Shown here: positions 15,488 to 28,751 of the stretch, in pieces
Layout: each line of letters begins with the position of its first letter
Position numbering within the stretch: the first letter of the stretch is position 1
NCBI GenBank assembly: GCA_029288805.1
Contig: JARIGO010000024.1
Span: 1 to 48,300 of the forward strand
DNA: 48,300 nt
Direction of reading: 5' to 3'
Source: Candidatus Nomurabacteria bacterium
Lineage (GTDB): Bacteria > Patescibacteriota > Minisyncoccia > Phycocordibacterales > UBA9973
Made by a program: the position numbers and the translations under genes
Notes under the pieces: generated by a model
Databases searched by the model: none
The model's input: the letters and a program-made list of their open reading frames with translations, nothing else
What the model was told of the DNA's origin: nothing

Positions 15488-16096
15488 GTGCAGCCTGTCC
15501 CTACATATACTCAGTCAGACCCTATAAGCTTCCATCCGCTTGTAGTCTTTGCTCAGCATGTCTTTGCAGATATTTTTTCTGCAGGTTTTTTGTATTTTAT
15601 ATATGTAGTGGCGGCAATCATACTGGTTGCATTAATCACGCTTACCATATGGCTCTTTATTCGCATGTATGAAATTCGCGAGGAAGATAAGAAAAAGAAA
15701 AAACCCGTTGTCATAACAGCTACCACCACTACTCATATGCAAGGTGATACGATTGAAATTGCTGGCCTGCCAGTAGAAAAGGACAATCCCACATGGAAAC
15801 ATATTCGCCAGGAACTGCTTTCTGAAAATCCTGCTGATTGGAAGTTAGCCATTATAGAAGGGGACATATATCTGGACAAGGTGCTTGATGATAAGGGCTT
15901 TCATGGAGATACGACCAGTGACAAATTGAAACAGGTTACTCCCGACAAGTTGCCTTCAATACAGCTTGCTCGCGAAGTGCACTTTATCCGTAACCGCATT
16001 GCCCATGATGGCGCGGCCTTTGTCCTGACCATGCCAGAAGCGCGACGACTGCTTTCATCATATGAAATTGTCTTTACTGATTTGGGAGTAATATAG
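15488..16096 (+). CDS. Conserved-looking hypothetical membrane protein
   Basis: 202-aa ORF with one TM helix and a helical C-terminal domain (WKLAIIEGD...RNRIAHDG); function not recognised. Confidence 0.7.
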   Translation: MQPVPTYTQSDPISFHPLVVFAQHVFADIFSAGFLYFIYVVAAIILVALITLTIWLFIRMYEIREEDKKKKKPVVITATTTTHMQGDTIEIAGLPVEKDNPTWKHIRQELLSENPADWKLAIIEGDIYLDKVLDDKGFHGDTTSDKLKQVTPDKLPSIQLAREVHFIRNRIAHDGAAFVLTMPEARRLLSSYEIVFTDLGVI

Positions 16097-16141
16097 GCTT
16101 GCAATATTTCTGAGGTAATTGTAGAATGCAGACCTATACAT

Positions 16142-16212
16142 CGCGGGGTAGAGAAGTGGTATCTCGTAAGGCTCATAACCTTAAGGCAGCTGTTCGATTC
16201 AGCTCCCCGCAA
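16142..16212 (+). tRNA. tRNA-fMet (CAT), initiator
   Basis: Cloverleaf CGCGGGG/CCCCGCA with C1:A72 mismatch, A11:U24, loop CTCATAA, TTCGATT T-loop; CCA not encoded. Confidence 0.92.
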
Positions 16213-16218
16213 CAATAC

Positions 16219-16255
16219 GCAAAAGGGCTTTTCCTTACAGGAAAAGCCCTTTTGC
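16219..16255 (+). terminator. Terminator after tRNA-fMet
   Basis: GCAAAAGGGCTTTTCCT/AGGAAAAGCCCTTTTGC perfect inverted repeat. Confidence 0.8.
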
Positions 16256-16315
16256 TATCTTGAAATATCGTTTATATATGCTATAGTCTTGTGGCACTAA
16301 TACAAAAAGAGATAT

Positions 16316-16392
16316 GTCGGCGTAGCTCAGTTGGTTAGAGCGTAGCACTCATAAAGCTAAGGTCGGAGGATCGTTCCCTCCCGCCGACACCA
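16316..16392 (+). tRNA. tRNA (CAT), probably elongator Met; Ile2 not excluded
   Basis: GTCGGCG/CGCCGAC acceptor stem, loop CTCATAA, encoded CCA; atypical T-loop ATCGTTC. Confidence 0.85.
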
Positions 16393-16455
16393 TACCGGAT
16401 TTATCTGGTATAATCGAAAAACGTACAGCATGCACCAGCCGCTGTACCTACATAC

Positions 16456-16512
16456 TTGCGGTCGTACCCGCCCGAACGACGTTCAGTCGGGCGGGGCTCA
16501 GCTGGTTAGAGC
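16456..16512 (+). repeat. Duplicated 5' end of tRNA-Asp interrupted by a 29-nt GC-rich hairpin
   Basis: TTGCGGTCGTA-[CCCGCCCGAACGACGTTCAGTCGGGCGGG]-GCTCAGCTGGTTAGAGC; without the bracket it is identical to 16780..16807. Confidence 0.92.
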
Positions 16513-16551
16513 TTGCCCGAATGTGCGGGCGAGTGTCCGTCGATAAAATAT

Positions 16552-16791
16552 ATGTTTATTGTCTACGTCTTACAAGATGAAAATGGTAAATTCTATAAAG
16601 GGTTTACAAATGATCTTGCAAGACGTTTCAGCGAACATGTTTCCGGGCAAACAAAAACAACCAGAAAAATGCCCGGTTTAAAAATTGTCTATACTGAAGA
16701 GTACGAAACTTTAACAGAGGCTCGTGCGAGAGAAGTCTATTTTAAGACTGCTGCAGGTAGAAAATTTTTAAAAAACAAATTGCGGTCGTAG
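16552..16791 (+). CDS. Small stand-alone GIY-YIG nuclease (UPF0213-like)
   Basis: MFIVYVL...FYKGFTNDLARRFSEH...AREVYFK: GIY-YIG strands plus conserved Arg, His and Glu; 79 aa from ATG 16552. Confidence 0.88.
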   Translation: MFIVYVLQDENGKFYKGFTNDLARRFSEHVSGQTKTTRKMPGLKIVYTEEYETLTEARAREVYFKTAAGRKFLKNKLRS

Positions 16792-16855
16792 CTCAGCTGG
16801 TTAGAGCGCCCGCCTGTCACGCGGGAGGTCGGCGGTTCGAGCCCGCTCGATCGCG
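16782..16855 (+). tRNA. tRNA-Asp (GTC)
   Basis: GCGGTCG/CGATCGC acceptor stem, CCCGC-CTGTCAC-GCGGG anticodon arm, TTCGAGC T-loop, G73. Confidence 0.96.
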
Positions 16856-16858
16856 CAA

Positions 16859-16892
16859 AGAAAAACACCTTGTATTATCAAGGTGTTTTTCT
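16859..16892 (+). terminator. Terminator after tRNA-Asp
   Basis: AGAAAAACACCTTG/CAAGGTGTTTTTCT inverted repeat. Confidence 0.8.
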
Positions 16893-17105
16893 GTAGACCT
16901 AATGGACGCTGGAACCAAAGGGTTTTAAAGGAAAGTGTGGTAACGCCCCCGCAACCTTTTAGTGCCATTTTTACCTCCGAAAATGCAACGTAATCCTTCA
17001 AATTCGTTTCAAGTTGCATGTCCAAGCGCCGTTTGAGCCTTTAAAATGGGCACACTGTTTCCGAGTTGGTCCCTAAAATGCAACTTGGTATGCTACTGTA
17101 CTCCA

Positions 17106-17402
17106 ATGAATGAAGAAACAAATAAAACAGGGGAACAGGTCGAGTACTGGCCGACATCAGCGATAGCATGTCTGCTAAATGCGAACAGGACGACCATCTT
17201 CCGTAACATTCGGTCAGGGAAGCTTGCTGCAATAAAGGAGAAGGGCGACTACTGGGTCTCAATCGAGGATGCCGAATACTTCAGCTTTCGCTACAAGCAC
17301 CCCAAGGCATACAGGAGGGCAAGGGAACTTCTCCGTCCGATGGTTCAGGAACTCATCGCCACCGTCTCCGAGGAGAATCTTGAAGAGGTAGGAAATAAGT
17401 AA
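17106..17402 (+). CDS. Excisionase/MerR-type helix-turn-helix DNA-binding protein
   Basis: TSAIACLLNANRTTIFRNIRSGKLAAIKEKGDYWV matches the HTH_17-type pattern. Confidence 0.72.
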   Translation: MNEETNKTGEQVEYWPTSAIACLLNANRTTIFRNIRSGKLAAIKEKGDYWVSIEDAEYFSFRYKHPKAYRRARELLRPMVQELIATVSEENLEEVGNK

Positions 17403-17434
17403 ATCTGATATAGGTGACCAGCGCATTTTTTTTC

Positions 17435-17463
17435 TTGACTCTCATTTTTTTACTTGCGATAAT
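17435..17463 (+). promoter_or_regulatory. Sigma70-type promoter upstream of structured noncoding element
   Basis: TTGACT-17 nt-GATAAT with extended -10 TG. Confidence 0.6.
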
Positions 17464-17710
17464 AGTATTGTTCTCATGTAAGACAAATACATGAGCTTGG
17501 CCGAAAGGTAACGAACAGTACTCATAAAACTATTTACTAGAATATTTAAGAACTCTACAATTATAGAACCATTATTTTGACTAGTACTTAGGCAGGAGGA
17601 GAACCGAAGGGTTCGAATCCAAGTCTTAGTTTGTCCCTAAAATTTGGGCGTTCGGCTGCAGTGCCTAACTCCTGAATGAGTACTGTTCAAAGTTGATGGT
17701 TCTTTTTTTT
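17464..17710 (+). ncRNA. Putative structured noncoding RNA / attenuator of unknown class
   Basis: Promoter upstream; hairpins 17473-17495 and GCC-GAAA-GGT; ~31-bp irregular helix (17565-17598 with 17669-17703) containing G-U pairs, followed by a T-tract. Confidence 0.5.
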
Positions 17711-17770
17711 GTGCGTGGTTTAAAAATCATAAGCTAGTTGAAAGCACCACAAGAAATAATTTTCTAAGAA

Positions 17771-17908
17771 ATGAACAAAAAACAAACTAGTACAAAAGTA
17801 GCCACAATAGCTTCGCATGAGGCTAAAGGCAAGAAAACAACACAGAAACAAAAAATGTCTGTGATCATGAGCGATCTAGCTCAAGCCCGAGGTAAGGGTA
17901 AAAAATAA
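17771..17908 (+). CDS. Small basic protein, 45 aa (absent from ORF track)
   Basis: MNKKQTSTKVATIASHEAKGKKTTQKQKMSVIMSDLAQARGKGKK; clean ORF with A-rich leader. Confidence 0.6.
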   Translation: MNKKQTSTKVATIASHEAKGKKTTQKQKMSVIMSDLAQARGKGKK

Positions 17909-17989
17909 ATCAATAAATGTAAATGCTTTCCCGTGTTGGATTAATCACTTTGCTAAGCTAGTCAGAAGCGACAAGTAAGTTTTACACTC

Positions 17990-18130
17990 ATGATTTACGT
18001 TCATTGTGTCATCCAGCCGGATGGCAAGGTACGATGTCAGCACTTTGACGGCACTTGGTGGCCTGAGGAGAGCAATGCTGGTCAAAAAGAAAAAGACTCG
18101 ACGGGAAGCGAGTCTAATTCAAGAAAATAA
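17990..18130 (+). CDS. Putative microprotein, 46 aa (absent from ORF track)
   Basis: MIYVHCVIQPDGKVRCQHFDGTWWPEESNAGQKEKDSTGSESNSRK; followed by a terminator. Confidence 0.4.
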   Translation: MIYVHCVIQPDGKVRCQHFDGTWWPEESNAGQKEKDSTGSESNSRK

Positions 18131-18148
18131 AATTAAATAGTGACAAAC

Positions 18149-18178
18149 ACAAAGGCATTCGGAAACGGGTGCTTTTGT
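18149..18178 (+). terminator. Intrinsic terminator
   Basis: ACAAAGGCATTCG-GAAA-CGGGTGCTTTTGT. Confidence 0.7.
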
Positions 18179-18437
18179 ATTTTCATTATACCACCGACAA
18201 CGGTGTCGCCAACATATTACTTTTCCACAATGTTTTGTCAATCTTTTTCAGTAGTTTTCAGGTCTAATAAAATTTTTAAATACCCGTTTTGTGTTTTTTT
18301 CATTTAAAACCTGCACGTAGCATATGTTACTCTTACATCATCCACTAGCTACGCTCTGCTGAAAAAGCTAATTTTTATTCTCATTCTTCATGCCGTCTTC
18401 GGTTCCAACTCGTCCTCGTTCCTGACGTCCTCTATCA

Positions 18438-18513
18438 GGTTGCGCAACGAAAAAGAACCCAATTTCTAGGGTTCTTTTTCTTTAGGGTCAAACGGAATTT
18501 GAGCTGGTATACT
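18438..18513 (+). repeat. Cassette header: tRNA-Asp 3'-end-like sequence, terminator and promoter
   Basis: GGTTGCGCAACGAAAAAGAAC...GTTCTTTTTCT aligns with 16849..16892, then TTGAGCTGGTATACT. Confidence 0.7.
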
Positions 18514-18519
18514 TTAAAG

Positions 18520-19020
18520 ATGTTAAAAACCCCAGAAACATCAAATGATTTTTTTCAAATTGCGGCTATTCACAATAAAGCTGTTATCCCATTTCTATCA
18601 ATTTATTCCGAAGAAGAAAAAAATGATAAGGGGCTATTCAATGAAACAGAGGAATCGATGATAGAAATGAGTCATTCAAGAAACATATTTTGTTTTGAAG
18701 ATAAAAATAACATTGTTGGGTATATTGCATTTAGAAAAAAGAATAATGATACTGCTTGGGTCAGTTCATTATATATAGATCCACAATCACAAGGTAAGGG
18801 AATCGGTTCAGAATTATTGAAAGCAGTAGAAATATTTGCAAAAGAACAAGGCTGTATTGTTGTAGCCTTAGAAACACATAAAGATGCAACATGGGCTCTC
18901 AATTTTTATGAAAAAAATGGATATAAAATCATAAATGATGAAATTTCTTCCTACCCATATAATAAGATTTTAGATAAACCCCCGGTACCTAATAGGCCAT
19001 TGTTGGCAAAGGTTCTATAA
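18520..19020 (+). CDS. GNAT family N-acetyltransferase
   Basis: LYIDPQSQGKGIGSELL acetyl-CoA motif, ALNFYEKNGY; AT-rich. Confidence 0.9.
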   Translation: MLKTPETSNDFFQIAAIHNKAVIPFLSIYSEEEKNDKGLFNETEESMIEMSHSRNIFCFEDKNNIVGYIAFRKKNNDTAWVSSLYIDPQSQGKGIGSELLKAVEIFAKEQGCIVVALETHKDATWALNFYEKNGYKIINDEISSYPYNKILDKPPVPNRPLLAKVL

Positions 19021-19035
19021 TAATTTCCTCAAACA

Positions 19036-19107
19036 GGTCGCACATAGAAAAAGAACCCTAGAAATGGGGTTTTTCTATATATTCAATAAAACTTGAGCTG
19101 CTATACT
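19036..19107 (+). repeat. Second cassette header
   Basis: GGTCGCACATAGAAAAAGAACCCTAGAAATGGGGTTTTTCT then TTGAGCTGCTATACT; same layout as 18438..18513. Confidence 0.7.
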
Positions 19108-19113
19108 AGATAT

Positions 19114-19989
19114 ATGAAAACATCGCTTCACCGAATACTCACAGAAGATGGTATTGAATTGGTCGGACTCTTGTATGAACCAGAAAATCCACCTACCAAG
19201 ATTCTTGTTCATGTCCATGGAATGGCAGGTAATTTCTATGAAAACCTTTTCCAGGATAACATTGCTCAAACACTGACTTTCAACGGGATTGCATTTTGTG
19301 TTTTTAACAATCGTGGCTGCGAATTTGTAAAAGACCTGACGAAGGTTGTGGACGGTAAGCGTACCATCGCCCGCTATGGAGATACATATGAAAGATTTGA
19401 AGATTGCTTGCTCGATATAAAACCAGTAATAGACTTTGCTGAGTCAAAGGGGTTTTCAGACATTCATCTTTCAGGGCACAGCCTCGCTAGTTCAAAGGTC
19501 GCATATTATGCCGCTGAACAAAACGATAAGCGCATAAAGTCTGTTACATTCTTATCTCCTGCAGACATGGTTGGCTTGGCAAAAGTAGAACCAGAATATA
19601 AGCGAGATATTGAAACTGTGGAGAAAATGGTTGCAGAGGGAAAAGGGGAAGAACTCATGCCGTTTCTTGTATGGGGAGAATGTCTCATGACGCCAAACAC
19701 TTACATAAGTATTGCTCATGAAAGTTCAAAAGTTGCTATCTTCAATTTTTATAATCCTAACGACTCCTTTTCTGTTCTTGGAAAAATCACTATTCCTAGC
19801 CTAACAGTTATTGGTAGAAACGATTACGCTATGACAATTCCAATTGAAGAAACAATGGAAAAGATTAAGAAAGCAATGGTAAATTCTCCAAAAGTTGAGA
19901 CTACGATTCTAGGAGATTCTGACCATGGTTTTCACGGCTATGAACAGCAACTGGCAGACGTCATAAATAATTGGATTAAGGAATCCTAA
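19114..19989 (+). CDS. Alpha/beta hydrolase
   Basis: HVHGMAG oxyanion motif, SGHSLA nucleophile elbow, GRND and DHGF triad residues. Confidence 0.85.
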   Translation: MKTSLHRILTEDGIELVGLLYEPENPPTKILVHVHGMAGNFYENLFQDNIAQTLTFNGIAFCVFNNRGCEFVKDLTKVVDGKRTIARYGDTYERFEDCLLDIKPVIDFAESKGFSDIHLSGHSLASSKVAYYAAEQNDKRIKSVTFLSPADMVGLAKVEPEYKRDIETVEKMVAEGKGEELMPFLVWGECLMTPNTYISIAHESSKVAIFNFYNPNDSFSVLGKITIPSLTVIGRNDYAMTIPIEETMEKIKKAMVNSPKVETTILGDSDHGFHGYEQQLADVINNWIKES

Positions 19990-20001
19990 AAACGCCCTAA
20001 C

Positions 20002-20523
20002 ATGCTTACAAAAATACTATTTCTTATTGTTACGCTCGTGATTCAGGAAGTAGTGCTGCTCAACAGTCTTTTTCTCGCAACTCATAATGGTTTGTATTCG
20101 CCAGTAGTGATATTCATACTGTTTGTCGTAGCAACGACACTCGATATCTGCATCGGTTTCCTTATCGGAAAGCAACTTCGACGAAAGACTGCCAACACCA
20201 AATTTGCCCGATATATACAAAAACAGTCTGAACGATTTTCCCTTTCAAAGGAATCCAAGAAGCGATGGTTTGCCTTTCTTGTGCTAGGGAATATTAGCTT
20301 CTGCTATATCAATGCCGCAGTTGCTGGATATCTAGATCTACCGTTTTGGGAAAGCCAGGCCTATAACTTTTTCGGCAACATATTGTCATATGTTCTCCTG
20401 TGGTATGCCGTCGGCAGCATATCCTCATTGTTTGGAAATCAATATACAGCCGCGGTTGCTGTAATAGCCATAACCGTTGTTTTGCTTTTAATACTAAGAA
20501 AGATGCACATAAAAAAGGTATAA
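20002..20523 (+). CDS. Multi-pass membrane protein (DedA-like)
   Basis: Several hydrophobic helices; DICIGFLIGK and NFFGNIL resemble the DedA/VTT pattern. Confidence 0.55.
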   Translation: MLTKILFLIVTLVIQEVVLLNSLFLATHNGLYSPVVIFILFVVATTLDICIGFLIGKQLRRKTANTKFARYIQKQSERFSLSKESKKRWFAFLVLGNISFCYINAAVAGYLDLPFWESQAYNFFGNILSYVLLWYAVGSISSLFGNQYTAAVAVIAITVVLLLILRKMHIKKV

Positions 20524-20541
20524 AACTGATATACTAATTAT

Positions 20542-21141
20542 ATGAATAAGCGCCCCTTGCCTCCAGGAACAAAACTACATTCAGAGCATTCAAAGAAAGT
20601 GTTTGAAGGTGTTCGCTGGGACATATATCAATGGGAGCAACCTCAGTTTGATGGAAGCGTTGCTACATTTGAAATAGCAAAACGAGATGATACAGTCATT
20701 ATTATTCCTATGATTGACGATGAACATGTTCTTGCTGTAAGTGAACGTCAACCTCACTGGGAGAAGGATGGCTTGGTACTTGTTGCCGGCATGGTTAAAA
20801 AAGAAGAGGATCTTGAGCTTGCAGCTCGGAGAGAATTAGAGGAGGAAACGGGATATGTGCTCAAGGACTTTTATCTTGTTGATATTGAGTATCCTACCCC
20901 GGGAGTAGAATGGGGAACATATACTTATATAGCAAAAAACCTTATTGAGCAGAAAGAAAAAACACTTGATCCTGGTGAACAAAACAGTATCGTCATTCTT
21001 TCAATTGAAGAACTAATTAAAAAAACTAGAGAACAAGCCTTTCTGTTTCGTCCTGCATATATTGAAAACTTTTTCGTTCGGGATGACATTCAGGGTTTTT
21101 TGGATGTATTGAAGGATCCTGAGAAGTTTGAATTAAAATAA
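20542..21141 (+). CDS. NUDIX hydrolase
   Basis: AGMVKKEEDLELAARRELEEETG Nudix box. Confidence 0.88.
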   Translation: MNKRPLPPGTKLHSEHSKKVFEGVRWDIYQWEQPQFDGSVATFEIAKRDDTVIIIPMIDDEHVLAVSERQPHWEKDGLVLVAGMVKKEEDLELAARRELEEETGYVLKDFYLVDIEYPTPGVEWGTYTYIAKNLIEQKEKTLDPGEQNSIVILSIEELIKKTREQAFLFRPAYIENFFVRDDIQGFLDVLKDPEKFELK

Positions 21142-21142
21142 T

Positions 21143-21472
21143 ATGGAATCAAAAAAACGTTACAAAATAGTTCTCTATGTTCCAGAGTCGCATTCAGAAC
21201 AGCTTCGCGAAGCTATCGGCAATGCGGGCGCTGGGATAATCGGAAATTATTCTCACTGTACTTTTACCATAAAAGGTACCGGTAGGTTTAAGCCGTTAGA
21301 CGGCGCGAATCCAACCATTGGAGAAGTTGGAAAGCTTGAGGAAGTGCAGGAAGATCGTATTGAAACAGTTTGTGAAGAAGATAAACTCAAAGCTGTTCTA
21401 AAAGCCATTAAGGATGTTCATCCGTACGAGGAACCGGCAACCGACGTTTATCCAATTGAAGTTATTGAATAA
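21143..21472 (+). CDS. Stand-alone NIF3/YqfO PII-like domain protein
   Basis: AGAGIIGNYSHCTF, GTGRFKP, HPYEEPA motifs. Confidence 0.85.
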   Translation: MESKKRYKIVLYVPESHSEQLREAIGNAGAGIIGNYSHCTFTIKGTGRFKPLDGANPTIGEVGKLEEVQEDRIETVCEEDKLKAVLKAIKDVHPYEEPATDVYPIEVIE

Positions 21473-21473
21473 G

Positions 21474-22391
21474 ATGCAAGAAAACACACAGCGATCTGAC
21501 GAGATTGCTAAACTTATAAGTGGCAATGGGTATAATAAACAGGTAAGCGAGATATCAGTTTCTATTATTGATCTCAAAAACCCTTCAGAAATTTTTGGAA
21601 CAAACATGGATTTGTTTATGTATCCTGCAAGTGTCTTTAAGATTTTTATTGGAGCTGAAATATTACGACAAATAGAAATAGGGAAATACAGTCTTGATCA
21701 GGAAATTACAATAAAGCCTCTCAATGGAATACCCAAGGAGCTCAAGTTGTATCCTGACCCAAGAACAACGTTAAAAACTGGAGACAAGGTCAGCATTGAT
21801 CATGCGCTCTACCTTATGCTTGCCGTCAGCGATAACACCGCATCAAATGCTTTATATGAATTAGTAGGAGTGGAAAGCATTGTAGAAAACGCCATTGAAC
21901 CCAATGGTTGGAACGGTACCGGTCCTACTAAATATTTTCTTGGTCGGTTAAAAGCTCGCAAGCCATATCGTCATACGGAAATGATACAAACATCCGCTCG
22001 GCATGTTGCCGAATTCTTTGCTCTGGTTGAACAGGAAAAGCTTATCAGTCCGTTTGTTTCGGAAAAGCTCAAGGACCACATGTCAAAATACGACAAGACC
22101 GTAAAGCGTGGATATTCCATTCCTCACTTTCTTCAATATCACAAGAGCGGCTATTTGGAAACGAATCTCTACACTTCGAAAAGATTTGGTTCGCTTGTCA
22201 AAAATGTCATCACCAAGGGGTGGGCGTTCCAGCGATATATGCATGATGCTGGGGTGGTGAAAGGGCAGAATTCTCATTATGTCATTGCCATTTTCACCCT
22301 TTCAAAACAGCTTAATCCAAGAAAGTATTTTCACATGGATAGGTTGGCGAAGGATATTTTTGAGTATATGGAAAATAAAAATGAGTCGTAA
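21474..22391 (+). CDS. Serine hydrolase, class A beta-lactamase-like / PBP-related
   Basis: PASVFK (SxxK), SDN, HKSG (KTG-like), HDAG. Confidence 0.82.
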   Translation: MQENTQRSDEIAKLISGNGYNKQVSEISVSIIDLKNPSEIFGTNMDLFMYPASVFKIFIGAEILRQIEIGKYSLDQEITIKPLNGIPKELKLYPDPRTTLKTGDKVSIDHALYLMLAVSDNTASNALYELVGVESIVENAIEPNGWNGTGPTKYFLGRLKARKPYRHTEMIQTSARHVAEFFALVEQEKLISPFVSEKLKDHMSKYDKTVKRGYSIPHFLQYHKSGYLETNLYTSKRFGSLVKNVITKGWAFQRYMHDAGVVKGQNSHYVIAIFTLSKQLNPRKYFHMDRLAKDIFEYMENKNES

Positions 22392-22408
22392 TAAACGACT
22401 CATTATTT

Positions 22409-22651
22409 TTAAAAATTTGTTTCCTTAAAGGTGGTGTCAACGATAGCTTGAATTATTTCATCCATCTCCTTAAGCTCCTCTTTCCTTTGCTTTTCTTGGT
22501 CATACGAAGGACCACTTCCTTTATTTAAAAAAGTTCCATGAGTACCATCGGGTACTAGACGTGTTTGGTAATGCAAAACGGGCTTACCCTTGCTTCCAAA
22601 AGTACCTCCATATGTTAGTACTTTCACTTTTCTATGATTGCTATTGTCCAT
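22409..22651 (-). CDS. Hypothetical protein
   Basis: 80-aa ORF filling the gap, converging on a hairpin at about 22379-22405. Confidence 0.45.
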   Translation of the reverse strand: MDNSNHRKVKVLTYGGTFGSKGKPVLHYQTRLVPDGTHGTFLNKGSGPSYDQEKQRKEELKEMDEIIQAIVDTTFKETNF

Positions 22652-22764
22652 ATACTATTTTTTCTAACTCTACTTTATTGGAGAACTTTGTCAATTTAAA
22701 GATTAACTGTATAGACAAAACCTAGCAGTAGGCTAAGTTTTTCTTTTCATGGTATCGTTTATAT

Positions 22765-23007
22765 ATGAAAAATAAATTCATCAGTTTTCTTGGATGGTAT
22801 GGGCTTGTGACGGTGGTAGGGGCGTATGTTTTGGTGAGCTTTTCTCTGGTTGGTCCAACCAATCTCGTATACCAGCTTTTGAATTTCACCGGTTCGATCG
22901 GTATTACTATTGAAACCTGGTATAAGAAAGACTATCAGCCGTTTTGGCTCAATCTTATTTGGGCATTGATCGCATTGGTGGCCATGGCAAGTGTTTTTGT
23001 TAAGTAA
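22765..23007 (+). CDS. Small three-TM membrane protein
   Basis: LGWYG...YQLLNFTGS...WLNLIWALIAL, PQ-loop/SemiSWEET-like size and pattern. Confidence 0.7.
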   Translation: MKNKFISFLGWYGLVTVVGAYVLVSFSLVGPTNLVYQLLNFTGSIGITIETWYKKDYQPFWLNLIWALIALVAMASVFVK

Positions 23008-23013
23008 CGATCC

Positions 23014-24126
23014 ATGAAAAATTTTCTCGCACACATAGAACTCTCGAAGGAAAACCTTCTTCACAATATAGCCGCTTTTCGTTCCGTTCTCGGAGTTGAG
23101 AAAAAGCTGGTTGCCGTAGTAAAAGCAAATGCCTATGGTCATGGGGTGAAGGAGGTAGTCGCCATGCTTGAGGGTCATGTTGATTATTTCCAAGTTGACG
23201 ACATTGAAGAGTTACGGGAGCTAAGAAAAATCACAGACATGCCGACCCTCGTTTTAGGGTATGTACTAAAAGATGATCTTGAAGAACTTGTAAAACTAAA
23301 TGGCATTGCCACAATTTTTGATTGGGAGAGAATGCAAATTTTAAATGATATAGGCAAGAAAAATAATCAAAAAGTAATTGTGCATGTAGAGGTAGATGCG
23401 TTGTTGGGAAGACTTGGTTTGCTCGCAAATGAAGTAGAAGAGTTTGTCTTGAAAGCTAAGGAACTTGAATTCGTATCGATTGAGTCATTATATGCACACT
23501 TTGCCGATATTGAGGATTCAGAAAATCTTATTCATGCAAACAACCAGCAAGCATTGATTAAGTCTGTCGCCGAGAGGCTCAAGTTGCCATTTCATATATC
23601 TGCTACGGCAGGAGTATTAAGCGATCCTTCAAATAACTGGGGTGGGCATATATTGCGATTGGGGATAGGGATGTATGGATTATGGCCTTCGAAAAGACTG
23701 GAAGATGAATGGAAAGGAAAGGTTGATTTGGAACCAGTGTTGGGTTGGAAGACTAAGATTGCTCAAATCAAAACATTGCCCTCAGGTTATCCTATTGGAT
23801 ATGGATGTACCTATATCACTACCAAGAAAACTGTTATTGCGATTATTCCGCAAGGATACAGTGATGGATATGACAGAAAGCTTTCTAATAATGGCGAAGT
23901 CCTGATAGGTGGAAAACGTTGTCCAGTTTTGGGAAGAGTTGCAATGAACATGTTTACTGTAGATGTCACTGATGTACAAGAAGTTTCCGTGGAACAAGAA
24001 GTTGTACTTTTAGGGAAGCAGGGATCAGAAGAGATTACTGCTACCGAACTTGATGAGAGAATTGGAACGATTAGTTATGAGGTTGTCGCTAGAATCTCTC
24101 CACTTTTAAATAGAATTACGATATAA
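23014..24126 (+). CDS. alr: Alanine racemase
   Basis: AVVKANAYGHG PLP-lysine motif, IGYG, GYSDG, GRVAMN. Confidence 0.95.
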   Translation: MKNFLAHIELSKENLLHNIAAFRSVLGVEKKLVAVVKANAYGHGVKEVVAMLEGHVDYFQVDDIEELRELRKITDMPTLVLGYVLKDDLEELVKLNGIATIFDWERMQILNDIGKKNNQKVIVHVEVDALLGRLGLLANEVEEFVLKAKELEFVSIESLYAHFADIEDSENLIHANNQQALIKSVAERLKLPFHISATAGVLSDPSNNWGGHILRLGIGMYGLWPSKRLEDEWKGKVDLEPVLGWKTKIAQIKTLPSGYPIGYGCTYITTKKTVIAIIPQGYSDGYDRKLSNNGEVLIGGKRCPVLGRVAMNMFTVDVTDVQEVSVEQEVVLLGKQGSEEITATELDERIGTISYEVVARISPLLNRITI

Positions 24127-24128
24127 AC

Positions 24129-25025
24129 ATGCTATCTATTCCTAATCTCAAAACAGGGGAAATTCTTGCTCCCTATACTACCTATAAAATAGGCGGTCCA
24201 GCTGATTATTTTGTTGTTGTAAAAAATCAAGAAGAACTGGTCAATGCTGTTATAGAAGCAAGAAAAAATAATATTCCATATTTTATCCTCGGCACAGGAG
24301 CAAACATTCTTTTTGGTGATAAAGGCTTTCGAGGGCTGGTCATTAAGAATGAAGCTGATAATTTTAGATTTGAGAATACTGATCTCATAGCAGAGAGTGG
24401 TGTGACAATTGCTGACTTGATAATGGAAACTGCAAGGCAAGGGCTGTCTGGCTTTGAACATTTTGCAGGCATACCAAGCACTGTAGGGGGAGCTATGTGG
24501 CAAAACTTGCACTTCCTTTCTCCCGATAGAACGCGAACAGTTTTTATAGAAGAAATACTTCATAGCGCAAAACTTTTAAATGAGGACAATGAAATAATTA
24601 CGGTAAGCAAGGATTTTTTTAAATTTGATTATGACTATTCAATTCTTCACGATCAAAAGTTTGTTGTCATCGAGGCGGTTTTTAGATTGGAACAAAAGCC
24701 GCAAGAAGAAATACTAAAACAAATCAAAGACAATCTTGAATGGAGAAATGAGAAGCAGCCTTCCGTAGAACAGTATCCTTCATGCGGCTCAGTCTTCAAA
24801 AAGATTGAAGGAGTAGGGGCGGGAAGGCTCATTGAGAGAGTCGGCTTGAAAGGATATAAAATGGGCGGAATTCAGTCCTCACCTCAGCATGCTAACTTCT
24901 TGTTTAATATAGGAGAAGGTACCGCCGCTGATGTAATCGCTTTAATAAAACTTATTCAGGAAAAAGTGAAAAAAGAAACTGGATATGAATTGGAAACAGA
25001 GATTAGTTTCGTAGGAGATTTTTAG
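24129..25025 (+). CDS. murB: UDP-N-acetylenolpyruvoylglucosamine reductase
   Basis: TTYKIGGPA, LGTGANIL, GIPSTVGGA, SCGSVFK, HANF, LETEI. Confidence 0.93.
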   Translation: MLSIPNLKTGEILAPYTTYKIGGPADYFVVVKNQEELVNAVIEARKNNIPYFILGTGANILFGDKGFRGLVIKNEADNFRFENTDLIAESGVTIADLIMETARQGLSGFEHFAGIPSTVGGAMWQNLHFLSPDRTRTVFIEEILHSAKLLNEDNEIITVSKDFFKFDYDYSILHDQKFVVIEAVFRLEQKPQEEILKQIKDNLEWRNEKQPSVEQYPSCGSVFKKIEGVGAGRLIERVGLKGYKMGGIQSSPQHANFLFNIGEGTAADVIALIKLIQEKVKKETGYELETEISFVGDF

Positions 25026-27416: not shown

Positions 27417-28751
27417 ATGACTATGAAAACAGCCGTTCGCGGCAACAGCTTCTCTCGTTCAGAGGGAAGTTCTAGAGGTCCACGTCCGGCTCGTTCTGGT
27501 GGTGGTTCATCACAAGGCTCTTCTTTTGGCCGTCGCCCAAGCGCCGGAGGTTTCTCATCACGTGGACCGCGTCCAATGGCTGGTGGATACCGCGGCGGTA
27601 ACGGAGGAGGACGATCATTTGGTGGCGGTAAGCGCCGTTCATTTAAGGGTGACGCAATCGATACTTCACGATTCATTAATCGTGCTGTTGACGCAGTAGA
27701 AGAAGTGGCACACGTCGCAAAGCATACGTTTGCAGACTTCGGTGTGCATGAATTGCTTGCAAAAAACTTGGTACAAAAAGGATACGTACAACCTTCACCA
27801 ATTCAAGATCAGGCTATTCCTGTAGCGTTGAAAGGAGGGGATGTGATCGGTATTGCAAATACTGGTACTGGTAAGACAGCAGCATTTCTTATTCCTATCA
27901 TTAACAAGCTTGTCAGTGACAAAAACCATAAGGCTATGGTACTGACACCAACTCGTGAATTGGCTCAGCAAATCGAACAGGAATTCCGTTCAATGACTGT
28001 CGGCATGCGCTTGTGGACTGTAGCTGCGGTTGGAGGACTTCCAATCATGCGTCAGATTCGCTCTCTTGAAATGGGGGTAAATATCGTTATCGGTACTCCA
28101 GGTCGCGTGAAGGATTTGATTGCTCGCAACAAGATCGTTATGTCTCAGTACAACACTATTGTGCTTGATGAAGCGGACCGTATGCTTGATATGGGATTCA
28201 TCGACGACATGCGCGTGATCTTGGGTGCGATGCCAAAAGAGAAGCAGGGCCTCTTCTTCTCAGCGACATTCTCTCCAGAAATCAAGGCATTGTGCAGTGA
28301 CTTCTTGAAAGATCCTATCACTGTTGCCATCAAGACTCGTGATACTGCTGCAAGTGTTGATCAGGATGTCATTCATGCGCATCCTTCTGAAAAGCTTGAT
28401 AAGCTTCATGACTTGCTCAACAAGCCCGACTTCAAGAAAGTGCTGATCTTCCGCGAAACAAAGCATCACACTGATGAATTGGCTCGTGAATTGCGTGATC
28501 GTGGATTTGCAGTTTCTGCATTGCACGGTGACATGCGTTCTCGCGAACGTTCTCGCGCTGTTGAAGCGTTGTCAAAGGGCCAGATCCAGGCAGTAATCGC
28601 AACTGACGTTGCCGCTCGTGGTATTGATATTCCTGACATCACTCACGTTATCAACTACGATACTCCGTCTACCTATGACACCTATGTTCACCGTATCGGC
28701 CGTACCGGCCGCGGTAACAAGAAGGGTGTTGCACTGACATTCGTTCGATAA
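27417..28751 (+). CDS. DEAD-box RNA helicase with RGG-rich N-terminus
   Basis: Q motif PSPIQ, TGTGKT, PTRELA, DEAD, SAT, HRIGRTGR. Confidence 0.95.
   Translation: MTMKTAVRGNSFSRSEGSSRGPRPARSGGGSSQGSSFGRRPSAGGFSSRGPRPMAGGYRGGNGGGRSFGGGKRRSFKGDAIDTSRFINRAVDAVEEVAHVAKHTFADFGVHELLAKNLVQKGYVQPSPIQDQAIPVALKGGDVIGIANTGTGKTAAFLIPIINKLVSDKNHKAMVLTPTRELAQQIEQEFRSMTVGMRLWTVAAVGGLPIMRQIRSLEMGVNIVIGTPGRVKDLIARNKIVMSQYNTIVLDEADRMLDMGFIDDMRVILGAMPKEKQGLFFSATFSPEIKALCSDFLKDPITVAIKTRDTAASVDQDVIHAHPSEKLDKLHDLLNKPDFKKVLIFRETKHHTDELARELRDRGFAVSALHGDMRSRERSRAVEALSKGQIQAVIATDVAARGIDIPDITHVINYDTPSTYDTYVHRIGRTGRGNKKGVALTFVR

Follow-up and report, generated by a model that had tools for sequence, protein, structure and literature searches.

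The locus examined here lies in a 48,300-nucleotide stretch of DNA (the window: positions 1 to 48,300 of the forward strand of contig JARIGO010000024.1, assembly GCA_029288805.1) from Candidatus Nomurabacteria bacterium, a member of the Candidate Phyla Radiation (CPR)/Patescibacteria. The window is contig C15 of a genome (G000) of 680,668 bases in 26 contigs, which is 96% complete. A tRNA-Asp(GTC) gene, two tRNA-Met genes and, about 12 kb beyond tRNA-Asp, a tRNA-Thr(GGT) gene are found by ARAGORN, while an Rfam search of positions 15500-23500 returns three tRNAs and no other match. Between tRNA-Asp and a DEAD-box helicase gene, Pfam searches and open reading frames (ORFs) give an orphan ORF, a GNAT acetyltransferase, an alpha/beta hydrolase, a VTT/DedA protein, a NUDIX protein, a small CutA/P-II-like protein, a class-A beta-lactamase-like protein and Alr, followed by MurB-like, EndoV-like and FAD-oxidoreductase-like ORFs named by reading of their translations. 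Directly behind tRNA-Asp, three related modules of about 100 bases (headers, copies 1 to 3) precede or separate the first of these genes. A preliminary description of the stretch had read them as an array of gene cassettes anchored at tRNA-Asp, a reading that proves essentially right and is supported by the comparisons reported below. These comparisons cover 51 species genomes of the same genus and an order-level set of 401 genomes.

Three related modules behind tRNA-Asp

The kinship of the headers was assessed with a profile built from eight headers, all from other genomes, the window genome being left out to avoid circularity. Across the 680 kb of that genome, the profile matches copy 2 (18422-18517, E 1.5e-17), copy 1 (16823-16916, E 7.6e-16) and copy 3 (19027-19117, E 9.3e-10), and the next, unrelated match has an E-value of 0.0089; every significant copy falls in the first 2.3 kb behind tRNA-Asp. 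A profile stripped of its tRNA columns still gives E-values of 9.1e-13 for copy 2, 1.7e-6 for copy 3 and 2.2e-5 for copy 1, compared with 0.0097 for the best unrelated site. By this reduced profile, the headers surpass generic terminators of the genome by a factor of 400 or more in E-value. Copies 2 and 3 are 71% alike over 86 nucleotides (nt), and their hairpins match as reverse complements at 25 of 26 positions (E 4e-6 against the whole 680-kb genome, with no other genomic match), which bears out the earlier statement that their loops are flipped relative to each other. By blastn alone, copy 1 is not significantly similar to copies 2 and 3, and its membership becomes visible only through the profile. 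Within the 680 kb, the sole occurrences of the 13-nt promoter word GARCTGNTATANT are those at 18501 and 19095. A dispersed repeat of the repetitive extragenic palindrome (REP) or miniature inverted-repeat transposable element (MITE) kind, or a general promoter word, is ruled out, as the copies are confined to the locus behind tRNA-Asp.

A check of the sequence confirmed the positions that the preliminary description had given for the three copies, and its counts of 16/21 and 9/11 matches between copies 1 and 2 hold on recount. The motif TTGAGCTG(G/C)TATACT likewise lies where it had been placed in copies 2 and 3 (Table 1), 17 and 16-18 nt past the hairpins and 21 nt (start to start) ahead of the two ATGs. 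The fourth, much weaker look-alike proposed at 22712-22744 was not recovered, since the profile gives no match there at E <= 10.

The anatomy of the module was drawn from alignments of about 35 headers, in which four parts can be distinguished. A left arm of about 27-45 nt, ending in (C/T)GCGCA, is followed by a perfect hairpin between an A-run and a T-run, by a spacer that often begins CTGTRGG, and by an extended -10 box 6 nt ahead of an ATG (GGAACTGGTATAMT in relatives, TTGAGCTGNTATACT in the window genome). The hairpin exists in three variants, GAACC(C)/GGGTTC, CACC/GGTG and GCACCC/GGGTGC, whose pairing is kept by double changes. Its loop reads TAGAAAT(A/G) in copy 3 and in six copies of other genomes, and copy 2 carries the flipped form, a small inversion across the palindromic stem.

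The core CGCGCA (16852-16857) comprises the last three acceptor bases of tRNA-Asp, the discriminator and two trailer bases. The preliminary description had the tRNA-Asp 3' end recurring in copies 2 and 3. What recurs is the 3' flank, where the remaining homology between copy 1 and copies 2 and 3 lies, together with the roughly 6 nt of the core; the 3' half of the tRNA does not recur. When the arms were compared with the 3'-terminal 40 nt of all 37 genomic tRNAs and with the tRNA-Asp of five relatives, the left arms of copies 2 and 3 were no more like tRNA-Asp than like other tRNAs. An origin of the left arm as a decayed tRNA-Asp 3' half was rejected, as local alignment never ranks tRNA-Asp clearly best. 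In relatives, the live tRNA-Asp is directly followed by the hairpin of copies 2 and 3 (GAACC) in G021, G026 and G008, and by hairpin, spacer and GGAACTGGTATAMT promoter in G001, G002, G007, G053 and stretch L153. Judged from these sites, the right arm (the hairpin and what follows it) is the natural flank of tRNA-Asp.

The spacing of the promoter could be compared with the rest of the genome. Of the 410 TGNTANANT motifs of the window genome, 77 stand exactly 6 nt ahead of the start of an ORF that is 80 amino acids (aa) or longer, compared with 1-16 motifs at each of the neighbouring distances, a distribution by which leaderless gene starts are the rule in this organism. Because the 6-nt geometry is its normal leaderless arrangement, the promoter part of the header is very probably functional, with the GNAT and hydrolase genes starting at 18520 and 19114.

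Table 1. Coordinates of the tRNA-Asp array and its flanks in the window
Feature	Position	Strand	Evidence or remark
tRNA-Asp(GTC), anchor of the array	16782-16856	+	ARAGORN; Rfam tRNA, 65.8 bits
Copy 1 right arm	16858-16925	+	Leave-genome-out post-tRNA profile, E 2.2e-5 at 16858-16916
Copy 1 terminator hairpin, CACC variant	16861-16890	+	Within copy 1 right arm
Copy 1 decayed promoter remnant TGGAACCAAAGGG	16910-16922	+	Hairpin and spacer kept; -10 box destroyed
Unit 1 interior, probably a decayed element	16926-18400	+	No Pfam family, no homologue found
Orphan ORF in unit 1, helix-turn-helix (HTH)-like	17046-17402	+	No Pfam family
Structured-RNA candidate in unit 1	17465-17715	+	No Rfam match
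Small ORFs of unit 1	17771-17908, 17990-18130	+	
Copy 2 left arm, type B, ends TGCGCA	18401-18446	+	3 mismatches to type B pattern; resembles two partial copies that overlap
Copy 2 terminator hairpin, GAACCC variant, flipped loop	18450-18479	+	Reverse complement matches copy 3 hairpin at 25/26
Copy 2 extended -10 promoter (TG-n-TATACT), 6 nt before ATG	18499-18513	+	Motif unique to two headers; predicts a leaderless GNAT mRNA
GNAT acetyltransferase, sole cargo gene of unit 2	18520-19020	+	Pfam PF00583, E 3e-21
Copy 3 left arm, decayed, overlaps GNAT stop codon, ends GCACA	19011-19044	+	27/33 to copy 2 arm by reading
Copy 3 terminator hairpin of GAACCC variant; loop in the common orientation, 3 nt lost from 3' stem	19048-19074	+	Terminator scan
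Copy 3 extended -10 promoter, 6 nt before hydrolase ATG	19093-19107	+	
Alpha/beta hydrolase, first gene past copy 3 (read as the oldest junction)	19114-19989	+	Pfam PF00561
DEAD-box helicase, conserved flank	27417-28751		Pfam/ORFs

Arms, elements and cargo across the genus

The preliminary description had named two outcomes that would tell against it, a gene order fixed among relatives and headers that match generic terminators no better than chance, and both checks came out in its favour. The gene order is not fixed, as both the length of the interval behind tRNA-Asp and its cargo differ. From tRNA-Asp to tRNA-Thr(GGT)/helicase, the interval measures 1.6-2.2 kb and holds no cargo in G018, G004, G020 and G017, 2.6-6.8 kb in G010, G022, G021, G026, G014, G005 and G015, 12 kb in the window genome, and more than 6-14 kb in others. 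The G001 and G006 helicases are 83-87% identical and the TypA proteins 92% identical to those of the window genome; only one of its 12 interval genes (the beta-lactamase-like one) was found in their intervals. In the window, the variable island extends to about 27330, ahead of the helicase. Several assemblies are broken exactly at tRNA-Asp or at a header (G013:C6, G015:C24/C28, G062:C9 and G045:C6), as repeats or strain mixtures would cause. Alr and the following MurB-like ORF (23014-25025) sit within the variable interval; among five close relatives searched, Alr occurs in just two, on other contigs and at 53-58% identity.

Complete elements occupy the same site in two relatives. In G006, an element of 8.98 kb lies directly behind tRNA-Asp and consists, in order, of a 549-aa large serine recombinase (domains Resolvase, Recombinase and Zn_ribbon_recom), a tyrosine integrase, an HTH_17 protein, cargo, and a 27-nt arm followed by CGCGCA, a GAACCC hairpin and a promoter. 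G057 carries the same element in the same place, with a recombinase 77% and an integrase 82% identical, and the same arm 8.4 kb away. This arm-core-hairpin junction, closing recombinase-bearing elements at tRNA-Asp, agrees with the att-like character that had been proposed for the header. The last 13 or so codons of the serine recombinase are antisense to tRNA-Asp (L013 1447-3096 in G006; L290 8990-10642 in G057). Because the recombinase ORF ends inside tRNA-Asp on the opposite strand, the attachment site lies within the 3' end of the recombinase gene, and integration must therefore swap the last 13 or so residues of the protein. Comparison of the G006 junctions with the uninterrupted site of G021 would place the crossover inside CGCGCA.

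The same arrangement extends to sister recombinases. In all seven examined members of the clade, the recombinase gene lies tail to tail with the 3' end of a tRNA gene, namely Asp (G006, G057), Arg (G007), Gln (G063, G008), Ser (G003) or Asn (G062). Given this abutment in seven of seven cases, it is the serine recombinase, rather than the tyrosine enzyme, that appears to be tied to the site. Homologues of the serine recombinase are very common in the genus, whose genomes measure 0.4-0.9 Mb, and were observed in 34 of the 51 at E <= 1e-5, with up to eight in G007.

Left arms of two types recur in the genus, being present together in 11 of the 51 genomes, and often bound one-gene units. The 27-nt type A arm occurs at ten sites in eight genomes, with 0-2 mismatches in 27 across eight species whose surrounding DNA has diverged, and a reversed-pattern control gave no match. 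The type B arm was found in four genomes: the window genome (copy 2), G006 (twice), G045 and G062. Every arm is followed by a hairpin, different hairpin variants stand on successive junctions of one array, and similar right arms precede different cargo (G045 at its live tRNA, G001 at its third header). In G001, a unit of four genes comes first, and three arms then set off an NYN gene and a Fic gene, each by itself. The G006 element is followed by another unit of four genes, by a unit whose one gene is NTP_transf_6, and by one more header. One zeta-like kinase gene lies between tRNA and arm in G053, two headers 1062 nt apart enclose one ORF in G062, and two headers 745 nt apart surround one ORF in metagenome contig L075. 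Among the matches listed, the header is present in at least three of 117 metagenome stretches (L059, L075, L133) and at least two of 119 genome stretches (L153, L209); scans with an 18-nt degenerate header word gave mostly chance matches.

Among the arm-bounded units examined, two are intact elements, one (in G016) retains a recombinase fragment, and no recombinase remnant was found in the others. The G016 fragment consists of recombinase residues 475-517 only, beside an arm, so that deletion of integration genes is seen directly to occur.

Mini-units of about 190 nt behind tRNA-Asp were observed as well, two in tandem in L133 (1-400, reverse strand) and one in G009 (L024, first 330 nt). Each ends in an exact copy of the last 16-17 nt of the tRNA and contains an inverted T-arm-like word. 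They are a different type of scar, a true duplication of the tRNA end.

Within the window, the units differ in content. The GNAT gene of unit 2 is rare, with homologues in four of the 401 genomes of the order at E <= 1e-10, the best of them 56% identical and in another family. The HTH-like ORF of unit 1 (taken here as 17106-17402) gives weak matches to excisionase families of PHROG (E 0.026 and 0.066) and shows no similarity to the HTH_17 protein of G006, and a search among proteins of 53-172 aa found no homologue of it. The 45-aa lysine-rich ORF at 17771-17908 matches phage family phrog_5079 (unknown function) with an E-value of 1.2e-4. A structured-RNA candidate of about 240 nt lies in 17435-17720 on the plus strand and comes with a promoter, TTGACT-17-(TG)GATAAT, and a T-run terminator of its own; its minimum free energy is -82.9 kcal/mol (z = -6.1 relative to shuffled sequences), and it has no Rfam match. 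It is kept at an unrelated G022 locus, between peptidase A4 and PIF1 helicase genes, with 82% column identity including promoter and terminator and, by eye, one T-A to C-G compensatory change in a long-range stem.

On the other side of tRNA-Asp, a GIY-YIG ORF (16513-16791, Pfam E 4e-12) lies between tRNA-Met and tRNA-Asp and overlaps the tRNA-Asp start. Upstream of it, in block 16459-16791, is a partial copy of the tRNA-Asp 5' end, consisting of an exact 11-nt TTGCGGTCGTA, a 28-nt insert and a D-arm word. The block is also present in G006 (77% over 543 nt) and resembles an insertion of the homing-endonuclease kind at the 5' side of tRNA-Asp.

Probable serial integration and the alternatives

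The homology of the three modules, their restriction to one locus, the variable cargo around them and the recombinase-bearing elements that end in the same junction in relatives together suggest, at a probability of roughly 0.7, that the headers are recombination junctions left by units that integrated site-specifically, one after another, right at the end of tRNA-Asp. An incoming unit would recombine within CGCGCA, so that its own left end, with terminator hairpin and extended -10 promoter, comes to adjoin the tRNA. The hairpin would then end the tRNA transcript, and the promoter, set 6 nt ahead of the cargo ATG, would produce a leaderless mRNA. The arm at the right end of the unit would be joined to the DNA formerly behind the tRNA, and each new insertion would push older units farther away. 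Copy 1 would accordingly be the live junction, where the tRNA meets the left end of the youngest unit; copy 2 would close a decayed 1.6-kb unit (16857-18400) and open the GNAT unit; and copy 3, with its decayed arm, would close the GNAT unit and open the older island from the hydrolase onward. The enzyme would most likely be the large serine recombinase whose gene overlaps the tRNA-Asp end in relatives, although its identity, like the order of the insertions, is inferred. Of the single-gene cassettes envisaged in the preliminary description, the GNAT unit fits in having one cargo gene, whereas the first unit is not a single-gene cassette. The array is old, copies 2 and 3 being only 71% alike, and presumably now an inactive relic unless a recombinase arrives from outside, because the window genome has no serine recombinase.

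Several observations weigh against serial integration. An intact tRNA-Asp stands at one end of the array and three repeated att junctions share the crossover segment with it, yet that shared tRNA segment is just CGCGCA. With no measurable tRNA origin for the left arm, the classic mark, a duplicated tRNA segment, is lacking. A site-specific recombinase in or beside the island is present at the same site in G006 and G057 and absent from the window genome, which, at 96% completeness, gives no match to PF00239 and has its sole tyrosine recombinase (PF00589) on contig C14; the preliminary description had rightly listed no local integrase. Unit 1, too, shows neither a recombinase remnant nor a likeness to the G006 element; in tblastn, the recombinases and other element proteins of G006 matched just the tRNA-antisense tail. 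Most units in relatives are likewise without a recombinase remnant, and decay from full elements would require many clean deletions, and no intact element with a type B arm, the kind carried by copies 2 and 3, was found among the 51 genomes. Finally, the right arms of copies 2 and 3 are of one kind, which fits serial integration only if units start with that arm; because both copies carry it, units must start with the hairpin-promoter arm, and many units in relatives do.

Other origins for the headers account for part of the evidence. If they were generic terminator-plus-promoter punctuation, alike by convergence or chance and without shared origin, the 28 terminator-like sites in 16 kb, the 410 -10 motifs of the genome and the non-significant blastn comparison of copies 1 and 2 would be unsurprising. 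The data contradict this very improbable reading: in the leave-genome-out profile the three copies stand apart from all other terminators of the 680 kb by a factor of 400 or more, no site but two of the headers has the 13-nt promoter word, and spacer and left arm are common to the headers too. Duplication by homologous recombination, with no site-specific enzyme, is a stronger contender, though still unlikely. A Campbell-type single crossover or an unequal crossover through a shared header would yield the order header-geneA-header-geneB; copies 2 and 3 do have the entire module in common, down to the ends of the spacer and the promoter, the genus-wide conservation of headers about 100 nt long could supply the homology, and the window genome has no serine recombinase. 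Such crossovers leave unexplained why, in 11 of 51 genomes, a conserved left arm stops precisely at CGCGCA, why that arm closes recombinase-bearing elements in G006 and G057, and why hairpin variants differ between successive junctions of one array.

A further proposal sharpens serial integration rather than opposing it. The units may be true non-autonomous cassettes, integron-like or resembling the staphylococcal cassette chromosome (SCC), each made of terminator, leaderless promoter, one to four genes and a 27-nt arm, and moved into and out of the tRNA-Asp end by a serine recombinase that a co-resident or a visiting element would supply in trans. In its favour are the near-identity of the type A arm (0-2/27 mismatches) in eight species amid diverged DNA, the three G001 arms bounding one-gene NYN and Fic units, the similar right arms preceding different cargo in G045 and G001, and a recombinase remnant in just one recombinase-less unit. 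A precedent is ACME, the arginine catabolic mobile element, which, according to an excerpted account (PMC7029739), lacks its own recombinase and is mobilised by the ccrAB genes of SCCmec. However, neither circular forms nor empty sites nor polymorphism between strains came to light, no identical cassette was found in two places, the window copies have diverged (71% over 86 nt) in a genome with no recombinase, no type B master element was found among the 51 genomes, and full elements that arrived recently could account just as well for the conserved arm. Arm near-identity and the scarcity of remnants favour trans-moved cassettes somewhat over wrecks of full elements, and the proposal as a whole is best held as tentative. 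Its widest form is also doubtful at present: a genus-wide serine-recombinase cassette system might use tRNA-Asp as its landing site and master elements of 8-9 kb acting in trans, with sister recombinases doing likewise at tRNA-Asn, -Gln, -Arg and -Ser, and the window would then hold a fossil array.

Known systems and significance

Accretion of islands at tRNA ends is well precedented in the published accounts. Integration into tRNA genes has as its standard mark a partial copy of the target at the far end of the element (PMC9897764). Arrays form by integration, decay to att-bounded units without a recombinase, and renewed integration (PMC5704250, citing Pavlovic 2004 and Bellanger 2011 on tandem accretion and cis-mobilizable elements, CIMEs, which are decayed elements with attL and attR retained). 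The tRNA-anchored islands of Prochlorococcus are built in this way by tycheposons and hold remnants and additional partial tRNAs (bioRxiv 10.1101/2020.12.28.424599). They share several points with the present locus, including a streamlined genome, tRNA integration, later arrivals that push earlier ones deeper, scattered remnants and extra att copies, niche or defence cargo, and an island without an active element in most genomes. In contrast, 910 of the 937 elements of that set carry tyrosine recombinases and their junctions are partial tRNAs, whereas in the relatives studied here a large serine recombinase, paired with a tyrosine integrase, abuts the tRNA and only about 6 nt of the tRNA are shared. 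The units here are also often single genes with a built-in terminator and leaderless promoter, and no replication module was seen in them.

CIMEs and tandem accretion, as described in PMC5704250, share with this locus integration at the 3' end, loss of integration genes and re-integration at the same site. They differ in being derived from integrative and conjugative or integrative and mobilizable elements of Firmicutes, linked to conjugation and mostly served by tyrosine integrases; the present units have no transfer genes, are far smaller (0.6-3 kb), and reside in a CPR host. SCC islands (CcrAB/CcrC) offer another parallel. In the portion of PMC7029739 drawn on, they combine a large serine recombinase with the 3' end of one conserved gene, and composite modules lie between short direct repeats, among them ACME modules without a recombinase that are moved in trans. 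A large serine recombinase on an element integrating at the 3' end of a conserved gene is likewise found in G006 and G057, though not in the window genome, and recombinase-less units bounded by the same repeats would fit an SCC-type structure. SCC differs in its target (rlmH/orfX instead of a tRNA) and in its modules of 10-100 kb, and the same portion describes no terminator-promoter arm.

The likeness to integrons that the preliminary description had drawn holds as an analogy in cargo. Both systems collect small, often one-gene accessory or defence units at one fixed site (here GNAT, kinase, NYN, Fic and nucleotidyltransferase), and each unit here ends in a conserved sequence resembling a recombination site. 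An integron proper is nevertheless ruled out. There is no IntI beside the array, the sole tyrosine recombinase being on another contig; the hairpins, by reading, are perfect terminator stems with A-run and T-run and not attC bottom-strand folds with R and L boxes; and each unit has its own promoter, with the -10 box 6 nt before the ATG, instead of being promoterless and relying on Pc. Island accretion at tRNA ends is thus known, and it is the form seen here that is unusual, with an abutting serine recombinase, minimal tRNA identity, very small units, and a terminator joined to a leaderless promoter. Full-text literature searches returned no description of tRNA-targeted serine-recombinase islands in CPR/Patescibacteria.

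Gene gain is little understood in CPR/Patescibacteria, whose genomes are tiny, and this locus shows a hotspot of gene gain behind tRNA-Asp. Across the genus, its cargo includes GNAT, alpha/beta hydrolase, kinase, NYN, Fic, nucleotidyltransferase and reverse transcriptase genes in units of one to four genes, apparently inserted by serine recombinases that act at tRNA ends, a role that usually falls to tyrosine integrases. The combination of arm, CGCGCA and hairpin provides a sequence marker with which such islands can be mapped in fragmented metagenome assemblies, and the pairs of recombinase and site are candidate integration tools. In the window genome itself, the relic array would date and order three insertions. 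If the genus-wide cassette system outlined above were true, it would represent a functional analogue of integrons in ultra-small genomes.

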